Source: a virus. From it: a stretch of DNA of 45,755 nucleotides. The notes beneath the pieces were generated by a model. The model ran no database searches. It saw nothing but the letters and a program-made list of their open reading frames with translations, and was not told the origin of the DNA. The position numbers and the translations under genes are program-made. Where the stretch lies: UHGV virus genome UHGV-0209863. One strand, 5' to 3'. Positions 2,251 through 18,294 of this stretch are shown here, in pieces; positions within the stretch are counted from its first letter, which is position 1; each line of letters opens with the position of its first letter.

Positions 2251-2366
2251 TTTCGTTTCTCCAGTTGCTTCAGGGCGCGCTGGTATGCAGCACGCAGCCC
2301 TTCCAGTTCACGCTTCAGTGCGCGATTCTCTTCGCGCAGGCTTTCTGTCTCGTCTTTGGAGCTCAT
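2247..2366 (-). CDS. small coiled-coil protein (39 aa)
   Basis: Hand translation gives MSSKDETESLREENRALKRELEGLRAAYQRALKQLEKRK. ATGA overlaps at both ends. Below the 60-aa cutoff of the ORF track. Confidence 0.3.
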   Translation of the reverse strand: MSSKDETESLREENRALKRELEGLRAAYQRALKQLEKRK

Positions 2367-2593
2367 AAGCCGAGCCTCTCTGTCAGTGCCACCGCGTCTG
2401 CATAGGTGGCCTCGTCGACCATCTCATCGCCCGCATCTGCGATAGCTTTAGCGAACGCGTTACGCTCTTCTGTGCGCTGCCGTAGTTGCGCTTCGAGAAT
2501 CAGGTAGTCTTCGTACTTAACCACTTTAACCCAGTCGCTATAAAACTCATCCCCACCGAGTTCACTACCTCTAACTTCATAGCTCTTAACCAT
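2363..2593 (-). CDS. hypothetical protein
   Basis: 76 aa acidic ORF in operon context. Confidence 0.45.
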   Translation of the reverse strand: MVKSYEVRGSELGGDEFYSDWVKVVKYEDYLILEAQLRQRTEERNAFAKAIADAGDEMVDEATYADAVALTERLGL

Positions 2594-2595
2594 GA

Positions 2596-2793
2596 TTATT
2601 TATCTCCCGCCAGTCGTTTAGTTGCACAGATACCGCGAACCTGAATATCGGTCGGGCGGTCTGTGAAGGTTAGTGGCGCGTTCTCTGCCGCGCGGGCCGC
2701 GACACGGCACGCCTCCAGGGTGTAGAACGTTTCCACACCCTCCAGATGTAGCTGGCCCGCCGACATCACCCAAATGAAAAGGACACTGGTCAT
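2596..2793 (-). CDS. hypothetical protein with hydrophobic N-terminus
   Basis: The likely real start is ATG at 2793 (MTSVLFIWVMSAGQ...), overlapping the stop of the upstream gene as ATGA. The ORF track's longer version would overlap its neighbour by 31 nt. Confidence 0.4.
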   Translation of the reverse strand: MTSVLFIWVMSAGQLHLEGVETFYTLEACRVAARAAENAPLTFTDRPTDIQVRGICATKRLAGDK

Positions 2794-3338
2794 TTTAATA
2801 TTTCTCCACAATCCGGACATTCATCACCGAGGTAGAACGCGCTTTCATGGTAGCACACCTGCGTATCTTCCTTACGGCAGCCCGCCTGTTCAGGCTCGGA
2901 CCCAACACCGCACTTAAGACAATGGGACGCTACCGCACCAGAACGGTATTTAAAATCGTGGCTACAACGTAGCTGCCGTAGTTCGGTCATTACTGCGTTG
3001 TAGCTTACGGTCATGTCATCACGTTCGCCGCGCAACTTCTGGTTGCTCACACGCAACTGCTTAACGGTGTTCTCCAGCTCCTTGACGCGACGCTCTGCTG
3101 GCGTAGCTTTAGGTCGGCACGCCTCAATGTCTCCGGCCAGGGCCTTGTCGTTCAGGCCTGGTGTGGTTGCGTCGACTCGCTGTTTAATACCCAGTGCTTT
3201 CTGGTGCATTGTTTCATTTGACAGGAATCCAAGCACATCATGCATCGCATGAGCCAGACGTGACGCGGAGGCCGGTATACCACTGCCGGATGCGAGCAGG
3301 TCAACCATCGCCTGCTGGTGGTCTTTGAGAGTAGCCAT
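2790..3338 (-). CDS. Cys-rich zinc-finger protein, coiled-coil middle
   Basis: 182 aa. C-terminus has about 10 Cys/His in CxxC/CxxH spacing (CSHDF...HCLKCG...CYHE...CPDCG). Confidence 0.45.
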   Translation of the reverse strand: MATLKDHQQAMVDLLASGSGIPASASRLAHAMHDVLGFLSNETMHQKALGIKQRVDATTPGLNDKALAGDIEACRPKATPAERRVKELENTVKQLRVSNQKLRGERDDMTVSYNAVMTELRQLRCSHDFKYRSGAVASHCLKCGVGSEPEQAGCRKEDTQVCYHESAFYLGDECPDCGEILK

Positions 3339-3941: not shown

Positions 3942-4027
3942 CGCTCGGCGGCCACATATGCCTGTAGCAACTGGTTAAACTTAACTTTCTGCTGGTGGGT
4001 CATTTTGCACCTCTGCAATAGGATATA

Positions 4028-12060: not shown

Positions 12061-14322
12061 ATGAGCCTTTTATTTCTCGATACAGAAACATTCTCCCCGG
12101 TCGACCTGAAGAAGTCCGGGGCTTACGCGTATTCGGAACATCCCGAAACAGAAATCATGATTTGTTCGTATGCGTTCGATGACGAGCCGGTGCAGGTCTG
12201 GGATAGCACAGACGGCAGCCGTATGCCGGAAGACCTGCGCAAAGGTCTGCGCCAGGTGCAGCGTGGCAAGGCTAAACTGGTCATGCAGAACGGCTTACTC
12301 TTCGACCGTCTGTTGATGCGCGAGTGCTGGGATATCGACATCGACCCGCGCAACATTATCGACACAATGATTTGCGCGTTCCGCCACTCCCTCCCCGGCA
12401 GCCTGGACGCACTGTGTCAGGTGTTGCAGGTTGAGGAGGAGAACGCCAAAGACAAACGCGGCAAGGCGCTCATTCAGCGCTTCTGTAAGCCTACGCCGAA
12501 GAACTACAAAGTGCGCCGCTACACAAGCGAGACGCACCCCGGCGAATGGGCGGAGTTCCTCTCCTACGCCAAGTCAGATATTTCTGCAATGCGCGAGGTT
12601 TATCACTCGCTGCCGCAGTGGGGTAACACGGAGTTCGAGAATGTAGTCCTGGCCGTCGACCAGCGCATCAACGACCGTGGCTTCTATGTAGACACGGCGC
12701 TGGCTAACGCGGCAATCGACGCGGTAAAGCAGCACAAAATTGAACTACAGGCAGAGGCTAACGCCAAGTGGGGTGCGGGCCTTACCGGAGCGGCGTTCCT
12801 GCCGACGCTACGCGACCTCGCCCCGGGCCATGAGATTCTCAACGCGCAGAAGTCGACACTTAACGACCTGCTCGCCGACGATGACCTGCCCGACGACGCA
12901 CGCACGATTATCGAAATGCGCCTTGGTGCGAGCTCCACGGCGTCGACCAAGTACAACCCGCTGCTGCTGGGCCTGTCCGCCGACGGCCGCCGCCGCGGCT
13001 GTCTCCAGTACGGCGGGGCTAAGAGGACGCTGCGTTGGGCTGGCCGCGGGTTTCAGCCGCAGAACCTGGCGCGCGGCCACTTCTCAGGCGACGAACTGGA
13101 CCAGGGCATAGATATGCTGCTGAAAGGCCGGGCGCACTGGCTTTACGATGTGTCGAAGCTGACCGCGTCGACGGTGCGCGGCTGCATCATACCGACCGCC
13201 GGTAATAAGCTGGTTGTTGCCGACTATTCCAACGTTGAGGGGCGTGGCCTGGCATGGCTGGCGGGCGAAGAGTCAGCACTTGCTACGTTCCGAGCTGGTA
13301 CGGACATCTATAAGGTGCTGGCTTCTTCAATGTTTAAAGTCCCTTACGACGAGGTAACAAAAGACCAACGTCAGATAGCCAAAGCTGCGATTCTTGGACT
13401 CGGCTACGGGGGAGGTGTCGCCGCTTTCCTTACGTTTGCTAAAAACCTCGGACTTGACCTCTATAAACTGGCTGAAGATATGGCCGGGAGTTTCCCGGAC
13501 CACATCTGGGCCGCGGCCAAGCGGGGGTATGAATATGCGCGCATCCAGGAAAAGAACAAGAAGGGTTTCGCGGGCCAGAAGGCGGACCGCCCATCTTACG
13601 ATTTACCTAAAAAGGTGTGGCTTACCTGCGACAGCATCAAACGCATGTATCGTGAGTCTAACCCGGCTATAACCCAATTATGGAGTGACCTCGAATCCGC
13701 AGCAATGAACGCCATCAAAGACCCGGGTACGGCTTACTGGGCGGGCGCGGCGGTGCGCGAGAACGGCGACCGGGCGATTAAGATTACCCGCACGTTTACC
13801 AAAGAGAAAGGCGAACGCGTGCCGGGGTGGTGGCTTAAGGTCGAGCTGCCGAGTGGTCGGGTACTGAGTTATCCTGGCATCGGTATTTCTGTTGAAAAGC
13901 AGGTCGAAGAAGAGGATTACTGGTACGCCGACGGCCCGGGCAAGAATGTCATGTACCGCGAGCGCATCCGCTACATGGGGGAAAACCAGACCACCCGGCA
14001 GTGGGGTAAACAGTACACCTACGGCGGGAAACTGGCTGAAAACTGCATTTCTGGTGATATGCTAATTTTGCAGGAAGGTATCGGTTTAGTTAGGTTAGAC
14101 CAGGCTAATCCAGATATTAGAGTGTGGGATGGGGTGGAGTTTGTACATTTCGAAAAACTAGTGTATAAAGGTAAACAAACCGTAACTACAAGATACGGAA
14201 TAACACTAACCCCCGACCATAAGGTATTAACTGAAAATGGATGGAAAACCGCATCACAGAGCGAAGGACTTAACAGGGCAGAAGTTGGGCTACCTGACGG
14301 CTTTAAGATGGATTGGGTCTGA
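12061..14322 (+). CDS. family-A DNA polymerase, N-terminal extein (3'-5' exonuclease plus pol motifs A and B) fused to the intein N-terminal splicing domain
   Basis: Exo I motif FLDTETFS, motif A DYSNVEGR, motif B RQIAKAAILGLGYGGG. The extein ends ...GGKLAEN, then Hint block A CISGDMLIL and block B TPDHKVLTENGW. Stop at 14320-14322. Confidence 0.85.
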   Translation: MSLLFLDTETFSPVDLKKSGAYAYSEHPETEIMICSYAFDDEPVQVWDSTDGSRMPEDLRKGLRQVQRGKAKLVMQNGLLFDRLLMRECWDIDIDPRNIIDTMICAFRHSLPGSLDALCQVLQVEEENAKDKRGKALIQRFCKPTPKNYKVRRYTSETHPGEWAEFLSYAKSDISAMREVYHSLPQWGNTEFENVVLAVDQRINDRGFYVDTALANAAIDAVKQHKIELQAEANAKWGAGLTGAAFLPTLRDLAPGHEILNAQKSTLNDLLADDDLPDDARTIIEMRLGASSTASTKYNPLLLGLSADGRRRGCLQYGGAKRTLRWAGRGFQPQNLARGHFSGDELDQGIDMLLKGRAHWLYDVSKLTASTVRGCIIPTAGNKLVVADYSNVEGRGLAWLAGEESALATFRAGTDIYKVLASSMFKVPYDEVTKDQRQIAKAAILGLGYGGGVAAFLTFAKNLGLDLYKLAEDMAGSFPDHIWAAAKRGYEYARIQEKNKKGFAGQKADRPSYDLPKKVWLTCDSIKRMYRESNPAITQLWSDLESAAMNAIKDPGTAYWAGAAVRENGDRAIKITRTFTKEKGERVPGWWLKVELPSGRVLSYPGIGISVEKQVEEEDYWYADGPGKNVMYRERIRYMGENQTTRQWGKQYTYGGKLAENCISGDMLILQEGIGLVRLDQANPDIRVWDGVEFVHFEKLVYKGKQTVTTRYGITLTPDHKVLTENGWKTASQSEGLNRAEVGLPDGFKMDWV

Positions 14323-14943
14323 CGGTAAAAAGTCAATATGGGAGTGCCGCTGCGAATGCGGCACTATTAAAAACATGGACGCTTCTGAATTTGTTAAACA
14401 GCAAAAGCGAGGAATCCTCGCATCATGTGGGTGTATGCGCAGAGCGTCTATAGGTAAAAGATTAACCCGACATGGTATGTCGCGGCATCCAGCGTTCTTT
14501 GTCTGGCGCTCTATGATAGACCGTTGCCGGTTGCCGACGCATCACGCCTGGAAGAACTACGGGGGTAGAGGGATACGCGTTTGCGAGCGCTGGAAAGAGA
14601 GTTTCGAAAACTTCTGGGCGGATATGGGGCCTACGTACAGAACAGGGATGGACCTGAACCGCAGAGACAACAACGGCAACTATACACCGGAGAATTGCAA
14701 ATGGCATACACGACGCAAGAACTCGAACAACAAAAGAAATTCCCGAATTATAGACACACCTTTAGGGAAAATGACCGCAGCACAGGCGTCTCGGCGTTAC
14801 GGGATAAAGTATTCAACACTTTTGTACAGACTGGACAATGGCTGGGATTCGGAAAGCGCGTTAAAGTCTACGACCTCGTTAACTGCGGGCCGAGAAACCA
14901 ATTCGTAGTGTTCGGGAGTGACGGGCCTGTTATCGTGCATAAC
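14044..14943 (+). mobile_element. intein inserted between PolA motifs B and C (900 bp, 300 codons)
   Basis: Begins at the Cys codon at 14044 and ends at HN (14938-14943) before the +1 Cys. Blocks A, B, F and G are recognisable. The first ~200 bp is AT-rich relative to the flanking pol sequence. Confidence 0.75.
14237..14908 (+). CDS. HNH-family homing endonuclease, in +1 frame relative to the intein splicing blocks
   Basis: 223 aa. N-terminus LTGQKLGYLTAL...WECRCECG...SCGC. Core YGGRGIRVCERW...DNNGNYTPENCKW...NSNNKRN (His-Me finger). C-terminal HTH-like GIKYSTLLYRLDNGWDSESAL. This frame is open from 14231. Confidence 0.7.
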   Translation: MDGKPHHRAKDLTGQKLGYLTALRWIGSDGKKSIWECRCECGTIKNMDASEFVKQQKRGILASCGCMRRASIGKRLTRHGMSRHPAFFVWRSMIDRCRLPTHHAWKNYGGRGIRVCERWKESFENFWADMGPTYRTGMDLNRRDNNGNYTPENCKWHTRRKNSNNKRNSRIIDTPLGKMTAAQASRRYGIKYSTLLYRLDNGWDSESALKSTTSLTAGRETNS

Positions 14944-15171
14944 TGCACGCAGGCGCTCTGTCGCGACCTGCTGGCGGTGGCGCTAGTTCGCGTCGACGCG
15001 GAAGGCTGGCCTATTATCCTCCACGTCCACGATGAGATTGTCACAGAGGTGCCAAACGAGCAGGAGTACAGCGTCGCGAAGCTGGAAGAGATGATGTGTA
15101 CTTTACCTAGCTGGGCCGAGGGGTTCCCTCTTGCAGCGACCGGTGATGAACTGATGCGCTACGCCAAATAA
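14581..15171 (+). CDS. DNA polymerase C-terminal part: intein C-terminal splicing domain plus C-extein with motif C
   Basis: Block F KVYDLVNCGPRNQFVV, block G GPVIVHN, then CTQALCRDLL...LHVHDEIV (motif C). The true start is uncertain: candidates are ATG 14581 or ATG 14701, the latter with GGAG 8 nt upstream. Confidence 0.7.
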   Translation: MRALEREFRKLLGGYGAYVQNRDGPEPQRQQRQLYTGELQMAYTTQELEQQKKFPNYRHTFRENDRSTGVSALRDKVFNTFVQTGQWLGFGKRVKVYDLVNCGPRNQFVVFGSDGPVIVHNCTQALCRDLLAVALVRVDAEGWPIILHVHDEIVTEVPNEQEYSVAKLEEMMCTLPSWAEGFPLAATGDELMRYAK

Positions 15172-15239
15172 TATTTGACTAATACTTAGCGATGGCTTAT
15201 CTTTAGGTCATCGCTTAAATACATCTGGAGACAGCCAAC

Positions 15240-15584
15240 ATGGCAAAAACGCCCGAAGGTGAGATTGTTGAATACATTAAAAAACAGCTTAAGGCCCGCG
15301 GCTGTTTAGTTCGCAAAATAGGATATGAGATGCGTCGCGGCTGCCCAGACTTAATCGCGTTTGTACCGATGCGCCCGGTAAACGGCATATGGCCGAAAGA
15401 AGGTGGCGCCGGTATATGGCTGCCGCCAATCACGGTATTCATAGAAGTTAAGAAGGATGAGAACACGCAACCAGAAGAACACCAATTGCGCGAGCATGAG
15501 CGAATCCGGCAGCATGGCGGTTTTGTCTGGGTGATTGGCTCTAAAGCGCAGATGGACGAGTTAATCGAAGAGTTGAAGCTATGA
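15240..15584 (+). CDS. VRR-NUC domain nuclease
   Basis: 114 aa with GCPDLIAF...IEVKK, the PD-(D/E)XK core of VRR-NUC. Sits between PolA and the SNF2 helicase as in known modules. Confidence 0.65.
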   Translation: MAKTPEGEIVEYIKKQLKARGCLVRKIGYEMRRGCPDLIAFVPMRPVNGIWPKEGGAGIWLPPITVFIEVKKDENTQPEEHQLREHERIRQHGGFVWVIGSKAQMDELIEELKL

Positions 15585-15760
15585 GACTAACCCTAAAAGA
15601 ACCAGAGCCACGTAAGCGCTGCATCCAGTGCCGTGAGCGACTGCCGCTGTCGGCGTTCCATAAGTCCAGCGTAGCTAGTATCGATGGTTACCGGAACATT
15701 TGTAAGAGATGCCGCAGGGAGACAGAAGCGGCGCGGATAAGAGAAAAGAGAAGCCAATGA
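15581..15760 (+). CDS. small zinc-ribbon protein (59 aa)
   Basis: MRLTLKEPEPRKRCIQCRERLPLSAFHKSS...ICKRCRRE. Two CxxC pairs. ATGA overlaps at both ends. Below the ORF-track cutoff. Confidence 0.35.
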   Translation: MRLTLKEPEPRKRCIQCRERLPLSAFHKSSVASIDGYRNICKRCRRETEAARIREKRSQ

Positions 15761-16854
15761 ATTATTATAACGAATGGGACCCGCAAGCCGCAGCGTGGTT
15801 GCGAGAGCTAATTGCAGAACGTTTAATTCCTAGAGGACTGGTTGATGAAAGAAGTATCACTGAAGTTAAAGCTGAAGACCTCGAAGGCTTCACCCAATGC
15901 CATTTCTTCGCAGGAATCGGCGGCTGGCCTCTTGCCCTGCAACTTGCGGGAGTCAGCCACAAAACACGGCTCTGGACCGGCAGCCCGCCGTGCCAGCCGT
16001 TCAGCGCTGCCGGAAAACAGCTCGGACAGTTCGACCTTCGGCACCTTGCGCCAGTGTTCCTCAGTCTCATCAGTGAGTGCCGCCCTCCAGTCCTCTTTGG
16101 AGAACAAGTTGCGCCAGCAATTGCAAAATCGTGGATGTGCGATTTACAAACTCACCTGGAAGGAGAAGATTACGCCGTCGGGTTTGCCGTACTCCCAGCT
16201 TGTAGCGTCGGCGCACCGCACAAAAGAGAGCGACTCTTCTTTGGTGCGAAGCAACTGGCCGACACCGGCGGCGAACGAGTTCGAATGCGACCCGGAGAAG
16301 GTGTTAGCGCGCCGGGAGAAATTGAAGGGCGAGAAGAAAAACGGCAACGGGTTTGGGCTGACTTTGGGGCAGAGCGTGCCTATTTATCTGGCGGCGTGGG
16401 CGACGCCGACCGCGAACGACTACAAAGGGAGCGGAGAGACAGTGATTCGCAAGGATGGGAAGGACCGAACATTCGACCGACTGGACTATTCAACGGAGCA
16501 GGGATTGAAACTGACGAATTGGCCGACGCCGCGCTCCGCCGACGGAGAGAAGAATGTGCGAACGCTGGAAGGTGCGATGAGGGAGATAGCACGGAAAGGC
16601 GGACCTCAAGACGTGGCACAAGCAGCGGCGATAACACAACCAATTCGCATCACAGCTTCTGGTCAGATGCTGACTGGCTCGGATGCCGTGATGGAAAGTT
16701 CCGGCCAGTTGAACCCGGCACATTCCCGCTGGCTAATGGGCTTCCCGCCAGAGTGGGACGACTGCGCGGTTACGGCAATGCAATCGTTCCGCAAGTCGCG
16801 GCCGAATTCATCACAGCTTTCATGGGCGCCGCTGGCGAAACGCTTAAGGACTAA
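15757..16854 (+). CDS. DNA (cytosine-5)-methyltransferase, reading frame internally switched (possible pseudogene or recoded gene)
   Basis: Frame 1 carries motif I FAGIGG, motif IV PCQPFSAAG, motif VI FGEQV, motif VIII HKRERLFF, and at its end motif X GNAIVPQVAAEFI. The target-recognition region with three WPTPxAxD repeats and motif IX LMGFPPEW is only in frame 2 (15842..16861). The probable start is ATG 15757 (MNYYNEWD). Confidence 0.7.
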   Translation: MNYYNEWDPQAAAWLRELIAERLIPRGLVDERSITEVKAEDLEGFTQCHFFAGIGGWPLALQLAGVSHKTRLWTGSPPCQPFSAAGKQLGQFDLRHLAPVFLSLISECRPPVLFGEQVAPAIAKSWMCDLQTHLEGEDYAVGFAVLPACSVGAPHKRERLFFGAKQLADTGGERVRMRPGEGVSAPGEIEGREEKRQRVWADFGAERAYLSGGVGDADRERLQRERRDSDSQGWEGPNIRPTGLFNGAGIETDELADAALRRRREECANAGRCDEGDSTERRTSRRGTSSGDNTTNSHHSFWSDADWLGCRDGKFRPVEPGTFPLANGLPARVGRLRGYGNAIVPQVAAEFITAFMGAAGETLKD

Positions 16855-16857
16855 GAA

Positions 16858-18294
16858 ATGAAATTCACACGCCGCCCTTACCAAAAGGACATAACATCTT
16901 TCATATTGAAACATCCTCGTTGTAACATTTTTGCAACTATGGGCGCGGGCAAAAGTTCAGCGACACTCTGGAGTCTGAACAAGATGTTCCAGACCGGCAT
17001 CCTGGACGACTGGAACGCCGACACAATGACTGGCGACCGTGTGCTGGTGCTTGCCCCATTACGTGTCGCTTCAGGTACGTGGCCTAAAGAACAAACACAG
17101 TGGCAATTCCCCGCGCTGCGCGTCGTCGACGGCACCGGCAGCCGCCAGTATCGTGAAGACGTGATGCTTAACGACGACGCTAACGTCGTGTGCTGCAACT
17201 ATGACATTCTGGAATGGCTGGTCGAGTTCTGGGGCGACCGCTGGCCCTTCACAGTTATCGTTGCCGATGAATCGACCAAGCTGAAGTCGTTCCGTAGTCG
17301 CGGCGGTAGCAAGCGAGCCCGGGCGCTTGGCAAGGTGGCGCACAAGAAGATTAAGCGCTTCATTAATCTAACCGGTACGCCAGCGCCAAACGGTCTGAAA
17401 GACCTCTGGGGTCAGTGCTGGTTTCTCGACGCAGGCCAGCGCCTCGGCAGCAGCTATCAGTCATTCACCGACCGCTGGTTCATCAGCGTACAGGAGGGAA
17501 GCCACCATGCAGCTAAATCGTACAAGCCGCGCAGTGGCGCTGACACGGAAATCCACCAACGTATTGCTGATATATCTCTCACAGTGGACGCCGCAGAGTT
17601 CTTCGGTTGTGATAAGCCGATTGTGGTTCCGATAGTCGTCCCACTGCCGCCGAAGGCCCGTAAAGCCTACGACCAGATGGAAAAGGAACTATTCGCCCAG
17701 CTCGAAGCCGGAGAGGTGGAAGCGGCGAACGCGGCGGCGCGCACCCAGAAGTGCCTACAAATAGCCAGCGGTGCCGTGTATACGACGGGCGACGATGGAG
17801 AGGCTACGAAAGAGTGGGAGGCCATCCACAACGCGAAGCTGGAGGCGCTGGACTCGATATACGACGAGCTGAACGGCGCGCCGCTCCTGGTGGCCTACCA
17901 GTTCCAGCACGACCGCGCCCGCATCCTTAAGAAGTTCCCGGAAGCTGTAGCGCTGGCGAAGGGGGTGAAGGGTAACAGGCAAATCGAGGCGTGGAACCGT
18001 GGCGAAATCGAAATGCTGCTGGTGCACCCTGCGTCTGCCGGTCACGGCCTCAACCTTCAGGACGGCGGCTGTCACCTGGCCTTCTACTCGATGACGTGGA
18101 ATTACGAGCACTACGCGCAGGTTATCGAACGTATTGGCCCTGTGCGTCAGCATCAGGCTGGACATCCACGCCCGGTATTCGTGTACCAGATTCAGGCTGC
18201 CGATACGCTTGACCAGGTCGTCCAGGCGCGCGTAGAGGGTAAGGAAGAGGTTCAGGACTTATTGATGCAGTATTGCAAACAGAAGAGAGGTTGA
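16858..18294 (+). CDS. SNF2/DEAD-like superfamily 2 helicase
   Basis: Walker A ATMGAGKS, motif II VIVADESTKLKS, and a C-terminal helicase domain. Confidence 0.8.
   Translation: MKFTRRPYQKDITSFILKHPRCNIFATMGAGKSSATLWSLNKMFQTGILDDWNADTMTGDRVLVLAPLRVASGTWPKEQTQWQFPALRVVDGTGSRQYREDVMLNDDANVVCCNYDILEWLVEFWGDRWPFTVIVADESTKLKSFRSRGGSKRARALGKVAHKKIKRFINLTGTPAPNGLKDLWGQCWFLDAGQRLGSSYQSFTDRWFISVQEGSHHAAKSYKPRSGADTEIHQRIADISLTVDAAEFFGCDKPIVVPIVVPLPPKARKAYDQMEKELFAQLEAGEVEAANAAARTQKCLQIASGAVYTTGDDGEATKEWEAIHNAKLEALDSIYDELNGAPLLVAYQFQHDRARILKKFPEAVALAKGVKGNRQIEAWNRGEIEMLLVHPASAGHGLNLQDGGCHLAFYSMTWNYEHYAQVIERIGPVRQHQAGHPRPVFVYQIQAADTLDQVVQARVEGKEEVQDLLMQYCKQKRG

Follow-up and report, generated by a model that had tools for sequence, protein, structure and literature searches.

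An interrupted DNA polymerase locus

The stretch of DNA analysed was UHGV virus genome UHGV-0209863, a window of 45,755 nucleotides (nt) that is otherwise a complete-looking Cornellvirus-like genome (45.8 kb), and the locus in question was its family-A DNA polymerase gene, into which a predicted intein and an HNH-family homing endonuclease gene in another reading frame are inserted. The polymerase open reading frame (ORF) runs from 12061 to 14322 on the + strand, where all features described here lie, and passes DYSNVEGR, RQIAKAAILGLGYGGG, and YGGKLAEN as the original prediction had stated. Its residues 1-661 (12061-14043), recognised from the ORF, Pfam DNA_pol_A, and megablast, contain the 3'-5' exonuclease domain and motifs A and B and form the N-extein, ending with ...YGGKLAEN. 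The N-half of the intein (14044-14322) follows directly with block A (C1-ISGDMLIL, from 14044), block B (TPDHKVLTENGW, with the motif TPDH), and the tail ...GLPDGFKMDWV, after which TGA at 14320-14322 ends the frame behind 92 intein residues. In this polymerase frame (frame 0) seven stops fall within 14320-14568, and the frame is open again from 14569. The C-half (14701-14943, 81 aa) consists of ATG 14701, an unconstrained leader of 53 aa, and blocks F and G, KVYDLVNCGPRNQFVVFGSDGPVIVHN/C (a slash marks the intein-extein junction or the insertion point), also written KVYDLVNCGPRNQFVV...GPVIVHN/C, which lie in the polymerase frame and end at 14943. The C-extein (14944-15171) begins with C+1, continues as TQALCRDLL...HVHDEIVTEVP with motif C, has 75 aa before its stop, and matched PHROG DNA polymerase families. 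The inserted DNA measures exactly 900 nt (14044-14943). It had also been described as AT-rich at its start against a GC-rich polymerase gene, which was roughly right, since GC was 0.40-0.47 over 14000-14400 and 0.55-0.63 across most of the flanking polymerase gene.

The second coding layer of the insert lies in the +1 frame, which is open over 14231-14908 and from ATG 14237 encodes a predicted free-standing HNH-family homing endonuclease of 223 aa (14237-14908). This gene overlaps 86 nt of the N-intein tail and 208 nt of the C-intein ORF, i.e. the entire C-intein leader together with block F. The intein halves are 379 nt apart on a single strand, and the DNA between them (14323-14700) is a dead zone for frame 0, with six more stops beyond TGA 14320, coding only for the HNH protein. 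Near its end stands GGAG (14689-14692), a Shine-Dalgarno-like site of the C-half ORF located 8 nt ahead of ATG 14701, and the same bases form the P-E codons of the HNH motif PENCKW.

Polymerase genes of Cornellvirus (Guernseyvirinae) Salmonella phages were approximately 82-85% identical to that of the window at the nucleotide level, and the megablast match stopped exactly at window position 14043. These polymerases, including the intein-less ones of VSiP and of PhiSTP1 (...YGGKLAEN-VTQALCRDLL in PhiSTP1), are continuous at the site of the 900-nt insert, with Val at the junction in place of the Cys of the window, and the empty insertion site reads ...GGCGGGAAACTGGCTGAAAAC/GT.... The depositors of the metagenome-assembled genome (MAG) labelled both the 753-aa (DAH52749.1) and the 156-aa (DAH52757.1) pieces as DNA polymerase I. 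No second polymerase was encoded by any ORF of 250 aa or more in the window.

The splicing residues expected of a class 1 intein (HINT fold) were examined in an alignment of 29 family sequences and in a clade of 12 loci that share the broken frame (the split clade: the window, L076, L077, L078, and L164-L171, the last eight of which came from the 90% cluster to which the 156-aa C-piece belongs; L numbers denote the loci collected). C1 of CISGDMLIL was invariant in the alignment and in all clade members covering the site. T56 and H59 of block B TPDH were invariant in the alignment, and the motif was retained across the split clade, reading THDH in L076. In blocks F and G, VYDLVNCGPRNQFVV...IVHN/C, N120 and C121 were invariant and H119 was at least 90% conserved in the alignment, with VHNC present in all clade members. 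In all 12 clade loci, where covered, C1, T-x-x-H, the Asp of block F, the final HN, and C+1 were intact. When the endonuclease linker was deleted from the family inteins and the resulting profile was compared with PDB, the matches were solved inteins only: the NEQ068 split N-intein was best (2.4e-7), the Mtu RecA mini-intein reached about 3e-5, and the Spl DnaX mini-intein matched at 3.8e-5 over profile positions 2-109, nearly its full length. Since this profile matched nothing but solved inteins, the likeness of the locus to an intein is not a chance one. The Pfam search with the single window sequence gave no Hint-family match, and a protein search with the polymerase N-piece tail and N-intein gave only 12 matches, none informative beyond L078. 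Conservation in the family alignment stops at ...rLPDG, so nothing conserved was lost from the N-half.

By sequence, the +1 ORF belongs to annotated HNH endonuclease families and has a C-terminal helix-turn-helix (HTH), with matches to phrog_374 (1.9e-57), phrog_3377 (7e-48), and others, and to HTH_psq in Pfam; its APSE-1 homologue carries an HNH endonuclease annotation. Pfam and NCBIfam gave no nuclease domain for this ORF, its sequence had no match in PDB, and its predicted model had no significant Foldseek match in PDB. Relatives of the protein numbered 862 at E<=1e-10, almost all of them called as stand-alone proteins of approximately 210-230 aa. In the L164-L171 contigs (8/8), the gene caller gave the polymerase N-piece and the 156-aa C-piece and omitted the HNH gene although its ORF was intact. 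The endonuclease is hidden in such annotations because of the overlap rules of gene callers, and in these eight loci the polymerase is called as two unrelated-looking pieces.

Out-of-frame endonuclease genes in the intein family

Related loci were gathered from IMG/VR, metagenomes, and genomes, and the N-terminal splicing blocks, the HNH gene, and the C-terminal splicing blocks were placed by tblastn; L100 was excluded as unreliable (1.5x coverage, mixed frames). Distant blastn matches of the insert lay in the polymerase genes of Shewanella phage SFCi1 and of the APSE phages. In translation, their splicing blocks share the polymerase frame, a complete HNH lies at +1, and frame 0 is open throughout. 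The same +1 offset of HNH to the frame of blocks A, B, F, and G was found in every intein-bearing locus collected, including APSE-1 to APSE-7, SFCi1, and viral, metagenome, and genome contigs. In 47 distinct contiguous relatives, frame 0 was free of stops over the approximately 205 codons of the linker. As a control, the equivalent frame was read in 45 free-standing HNH homologues, which had 9.9 stops per 100 codons, the GC-rich ones carrying 3-6 per gene. This comparison ruled out chance openness and indicated that frame 0 is held open by selection in the relatives. The amino-acid sequence of the linker was a mere shadow of the HNH frame in the family alignment. A stop in frame 0 requires an HNH codon ending in T before AA, AG, or GA, so that avoiding stops costs the HNH protein only synonymous choice.

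In nearly every family member, the conserved HHRAKD motif of HNH coincides with or closely follows an ATG or GTG, and GAGG, GGAGG, or AGGAGG is often found 8-9 nt ahead of this codon, inside the T-E-G-W codons of the N-intein. Such start codons and upstream sites fit an independent initiation of HNH translation. As read from these frames, the relatives are predicted contiguous inteins in which an endonuclease gene is nested out of frame. The window itself has seven stops where 47 distinct relatives have an open splicing frame, which argues that it derives from the contiguous out-of-frame kind and is not a member of it. The out-of-frame endonuclease is a family trait, usually paired with an open contiguous intein frame, of which the window clade is a putative derived split form.

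Several members of the family differ in other respects. From gene calls, L004 and L005 had been taken as clean splits, which the frame analysis did not uphold: L005 is contiguous, and L004 departs from the contiguous type in having lost 1 nt from a C-run just ahead of block B (approximately 3950-3985; GACCCAGACCAT versus ACCCCAGACCAT). This slip moves the polymerase N-piece and block A into the HNH frame, and it either arose as an error of the metagenome assembly or is real and marks a site that is inactivating or prone to slippage. Insertion within the polymerase motif also varies in the family, between two sites separated by three codons. At the APSE-type site, YGGKx/C-EN-xxQA, Cys stands for Ala (L002, L005, L006, L009, L013, and L014), and at the window-type site, YGGKLAEN/C-TQA, Cys stands for Val (the window, L003, L007, and others). 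L106 (approximately 2500-2950) and L108 carry a shorter HNH without the C-terminal HTH and a linker of approximately 155-160 codons, and their frame 0 is also stop-free, which indicates that the stretch over which the frame has to stay open follows the length of the nested gene.

The same intein with an HNH at +1 and an open frame 0 was found in a host protein other than PolA in L099 and L160 (approximately 2260-3210) and also in L022, L023, and L105. The C-extein ...VLVSYEFKSDV...ILLAHPKSAGH of the former two looks helicase-like, and that of the latter three is unlike PolA past block G. These non-PolA hosts suggest that the nested cassette may switch exteins. The nested-HNH polymerase intein was present as well in L159, an Oscillospiraceae MAG (Firmicutes-associated), and in L157, an apparent prophage in the chromosome of Parapusillimonas sp. 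JC17 (1174855-1180526). The latter host is a cultured betaproteobacterium, and L157 could be an experimentally accessible contiguous representative.

A clade with a broken splicing frame

The split clade comprises 12 loci with nine distinct sequences from at least nine samples, each locus carrying four to eight frame-0 stops, with no indels among the inteins of the clade. The stop at 14320 was present in every member covering the site, as TAA instead of TGA in L076. In a neighbour-joining tree of HNH proteins, the clade was monophyletic, had the contiguous L007 as its sister, and was nested within a wider set of contiguous members, which together with the common stop indicates that the broken state is derived and inherited. 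Another split was found elsewhere in the tree. In L017, the N-half, the HNH, and the C-half lie in three different frames, and directly before block F the stop of the HNH and the start of the C-half share bases (..CGA TGA / ATG AAA; ATGA). L017 is interpreted as an independent split of the same family with the classic fractured-gene layout.

We further compared the parts of the locus between clade members by Nei-Gojobori counts, expressed as the ratio of nonsynonymous to synonymous proportions of differences (pN/pS). N-intein codons not overlapped by HNH had a pN/pS of 0.14 (pS 0.70), and blocks F-G had 0.09-0.15 (pS 0.68-0.83). The HNH-only region had 0.09-0.14 in the +1 frame, and the same DNA read in frame 0 had 1.6-1.75. 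For the polymerase pieces, pN/pS was 0.28 in the N-extein (value against L078) and 0.19 in the C-extein. Purifying selection acts on the HNH gene and on the two halves of the intein as well as on each polymerase piece, and the element is maintained rather than decaying. The 53-residue leader between ATG 14701 and block F had a pN/pS of 0.8-1.6 and yet was kept open. The overlap at 14231-14320 was strongly conserved at the nucleotide level, with pS of approximately 0.1-0.2 in both frames. Over the block F overlap, the HNH frame had a pN/pS of 0.6-3.3, which indicates that block F sets the sequence there and agrees with the disordered tail in the HNH model.

ATG 14701, originally suggested as a possible start of the C-half, proved to be the sole start codon shared by the 12 loci that lies beyond every one of their stops, and it is the predicted start. 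Stops occurred at ten positions clade-wide, from 14320 to 14692, with none further downstream, and lineage-specific ones approaching this ATG were at 14605 (L078), 14671 (L076), and 14692 (L167-L170, three codons upstream). Ten of the 28 potential stop sites were used in 14320-14700, compared with none of 13 in 14701-14859 (Fisher P=0.012). The duplex of the C-half GGAG with the anti-Shine-Dalgarno sequence had -6.6 kcal/mol, which ranks at the 5th percentile when all 618 ATGs of the window are scored, and the polymerase's own start had -6.1.

The intein was 97-99.9% identical to that of the window in L077, L164-L166, L167-L170, and L171, and the same contigs had C-exteins 80-86% and N-exteins 87-98% identical to those of the window. 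The break in identity was sharp at the 3' junction, and neighbouring genes also differed between these contigs. Intein-less alleles were present in close relatives. This pattern is the one that would be expected from homing or cassette-centred recombination. Since the cassette appears to have spread across polymerase alleles, phages carrying the split form presumably replicate in nature.

Interpretation of the locus and known systems

Three interpretations had originally been offered, namely a fractured polymerase gene with a split intein and a free-standing endonuclease gene, a contiguous intein with compensating indels or base-calling errors, and programmed recoding. It was the fractured gene that was supported by the break shared by 12 loci, the purifying selection on the parts, and the conserved ATG 14701. 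We consider it likely that the locus is a functional, mobile, naturally split intein that acts by trans-splicing, with an overlapping free-standing HNH gene. According to this reading, three overlapping translation units on the same strand replace the single polymerase ORF: the polymerase N-piece with the 92-aa N-intein (12061-14322), the HNH homing endonuclease in the +1 frame (14237-14908), and the 81-aa C-intein with the polymerase C-terminus and motif C (from ATG 14701 to 15171). One transcript would yield all three products, because the promoter and terminator scan gave no + strand match inside the insert (counts were at shuffle level). Once translated, the halves would bind each other and join the polymerase pieces by protein trans-splicing into a polymerase of approximately 737 aa, with Cys in place of Val between AEN and TQA. 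In co-infecting phages, the HNH enzyme would cut polymerase alleles that lack the intein, and their repair would copy in the whole cassette (homing). As for its origin, the cassette would come from a contiguous intein family with an out-of-frame HNH of the free-standing type, in which the splicing frame was kept free of stops by synonymous HNH codon choice. In the lineage of the window, this constraint would have been lost by point mutations, the stop at 14320 first, and the intein would have become split.

A number of observations weigh against this reading. The members of the clade are all metagenome-derived, with no cultured phage among them, and splicing and nuclease activity are predicted from sequence for all family members. 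Part of the pN/pS of the exteins may date from before the arrival of the cassette, given its lateral movement. The GGAG and ATG 14701 are also forced by the HNH motif P-E-N-C-K/R-W, so that their conservation alone is weak evidence, and the conservation of GGAG...ATG (14689-14703) was down-weighted as independent evidence for this reason. An ATG equivalent to 14701 was present by chance in 10 of approximately 37 contiguous relatives. The unconstrained C-intein leader of 53 aa is longer than in characterised natural split inteins, and the HNH Shine-Dalgarno sequence in the split clade is mediocre (-4.0 kcal/mol).

An association without ligation has to be weighed as well, in which the intein halves would serve only as a high-affinity dimerisation module and the polymerase would be active as two chains. 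Purifying selection on the halves would be equally expected for such a module, and split phage enzymes such as Aeh1 NrdA and T4-like gp43 work without inteins (discussed in PMC2677866). However, the residues needed for splicing chemistry (C1, TxxH, block F Asp, HN, and C+1) were strictly kept in all 12 loci, and the insert lies inside the conserved N-x-x-x-Q active-site motif (AEN/VTQA). Approximately 170 extra residues in this motif of a family-A polymerase are probably disruptive, which counts against the association, and we regard it as unlikely. Decay of the locus, with an intein inactivated by nonsense mutations, a polymerase pseudogene, and a phage that is defective or uses another polymerase, would account for the four to eight frame-0 stops and for a clade known from metagenomes and from no cultured isolate. 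It does not agree with the pN/pS of 0.09-0.28 at pS of approximately 0.6-0.7 for the halves, HNH, and both exteins, with the lack of stops after ATG 14701, with the occurrence of the cassette in at least nine samples and several polymerase backgrounds, or with the lack of another polymerase in the 45.8-kb window, and is therefore very unlikely.

The remaining two explanations would restore a single intein of 300 aa. In recoding, a +1 shift near 14231-14320 and a -1 shift near 14860, or a bypass of the stop, would produce an in-frame cis-splicing HNH intein, as the insert length of exactly 300 codons and the high nucleotide conservation of the overlap at 14231-14320 could suggest. Dual coding accounts for that conservation, however, and the open frame 0 over approximately 205 codons in 47 relatives would be pointless if the frame were shifted. 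Moreover, throughout the family the HNH gene has a conserved start and Shine-Dalgarno sequence of its own, and its N-terminus is that of the free-standing homologues. A search of 13000-16000 against Rfam at E<=1 gave no match, and two efficient frameshifts within one essential gene would be unprecedented. We thus hold recoding to be extremely improbable. An artefact, in which a pair of compensating single-base errors would disguise an ordinary in-frame HNH intein, has an almost negligible probability. Metagenome assemblies do carry indel errors, as the 1-nt C-run slip of L004 illustrates, but the same frames without indels recurred in 12 independent clade assemblies, the +1 offset was found in all intein-bearing relatives including the Sanger-era APSE-1, and frame 0 of the window is broken by seven substitutions rather than a shift. 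The proposal of compensating indels was therefore refuted.

The arrangement resembles systems that are already known, since split inteins accompanied by a free-standing endonuclease gene are on record, and so are contiguous ones that carry an endonuclease gene out of frame. A contiguous intein with an out-of-frame endonuclease gene was reportedly noted by Gorbalenya in 1998, and an intein in the P45 DNA polymerase of the APSE phage is said to have been described by van der Wilk et al. in 1999. In the fractured genes of Dassa et al. 2009 (PMC2677866), a split intein likewise divides the gene of a DNA-metabolism enzyme from a phage or environmental source, the intein is split where an endonuclease is usually inserted, and a free-standing endonuclease gene lies between the halves with its 3' end overlapping the start of the C-intein ORF; L017 has this textbook layout with its ATGA overlap. 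In contrast to those loci, the endonuclease is of the HNH family here and the host is a family-A polymerase, and the HNH of the window clade does not lie cleanly between the halves but overlaps both of them (86 nt and 208 nt), compared with overlaps of only 6-69 bp (PMC2677866). Contiguous ancestors with the same nested gene also survive here, which makes the route from contiguous to split directly visible.

Out-of-frame endonucleases of the EndoVII-like (frame 3), LAGLIDADG (+2 or antisense), and Vsr-like (antisense) types have been described in actinophage genes or cyanobacterial dnaX (bioRxiv 10.1101/2025.01.02.630785; bioRxiv 10.64898/2026.09.14.751524). The 47 contiguous relatives resemble the non-canonical inteins (Gosselin, Arsenault & Gogarten 2025; Phillips et al. 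2026) in having a stop-free, unstructured-looking splicing frame across the endonuclease region and an overlapping endonuclease ORF with its own start and Shine-Dalgarno sequence, and the origin proposed for those inteins, a mini-intein invaded by a free-standing endonuclease gene, is the same. They differ in that the present endonuclease is HNH-family at +1 in PolA of proteobacterial phages, and the window is a putative split derivative, the outcome that those authors predicted as likely.

The APSE P45 intein, mentioned as an 'intein domain' in PMC7313666, is homologous to that of the window, lies in the same PolA region, and has a homologous +1 HNH (annotated P46). APSE differs in being contiguous with frame 0 open, in a mini-intein only 48% identical, and in an insertion three codons upstream (YGGKS/CEN... 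versus ...AEN/CTQ); the literature searched gave no mention of the APSE frame offset. The ShiLan domain (Arsenault et al. 2025, PMC11855218) is a comparable case of a hidden out-of-frame HNH in a stop-free insertion, located in a phage methylase and showing signs of active homing. This insertion lacks splicing domains and is retained in the mature protein, whereas canonical intein blocks flank the HNH here. The cyanobacterial DnaE and the Nanoarchaeum equitans PolB NEQ068/NEQ528 are likewise replicative polymerases trans-spliced from two polypeptides, as predicted here, with an N-half of approximately 90-120 aa. Their halves are unlinked and have no endonuclease gene, whereas those of the window are 379 nt apart, are overlapped by an endonuclease gene, and belong to an apparently mobile cassette.

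The HNH-family endonuclease, the phage PolA host, and the three-way overlap appear to be new, as does the coexistence of contiguous and split forms in one family with the split form still mobile, and a literature search of incomplete coverage returned no earlier description of this arrangement. If the succession of forms proposed below is real, the window clade would, as far as could be found, represent the first fractured gene of the HNH type, and a still-mobile split intein in an enterobacterial (Cornellvirus-like) phage lineage whose steps are experimentally testable. It would also offer protein engineering a new orthogonal split intein, a candidate with a Cys+1 junction. The origin of split inteins has so far been argued mostly from models, and split-intein intermediates were inferred from unrelated loci (Dassa et al. 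2009, PMC2677866). One homologous family here holds three states, i.e. intein-less alleles, 47 contiguous nested-HNH sequences, and two putative independent split derivatives. We lean towards the view that this family captures the birth of a split intein, in which an HNH gene invades a mini-intein, approximately 600 nt become dual-coding, and at least two independent conversions lead to a homing split cassette of three ORFs. Since nonsense substitutions alone appear to have split the window clade, with its parts still selected and the cassette moving, the transition from contiguous to split would be directly testable. The approximately 600 nt of dual coding, apparently kept purely by synonymous-codon constraint, would also be a clean and sizeable example of its kind.

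Downstream of the polymerase, two ORFs on the + strand overlap almost wholly in different frames, one at 15709-16854 (381 aa) and the other at 15842-16861 (339 aa, TTG start). The former has the C5-methylase motifs FAGIGG, PPCQPFS, and ...GNAIVPQV and matched Pfam DNA_methylase and phrog_363 (E=5e-81). The latter has NWPTP... repeats and LNPAHSRWLMGFPPEW, and it had no Pfam match and matched phrog_1008 'DNA methyltransferase' (E=1e-54). PhiSTP1 has no methylase gene at this position. Both overlapping frames matched different PHROG methyltransferase families nearly end to end, and the overlap could be a second dual-coding region, or these PHROG families could have been built from alternative-frame gene calls.

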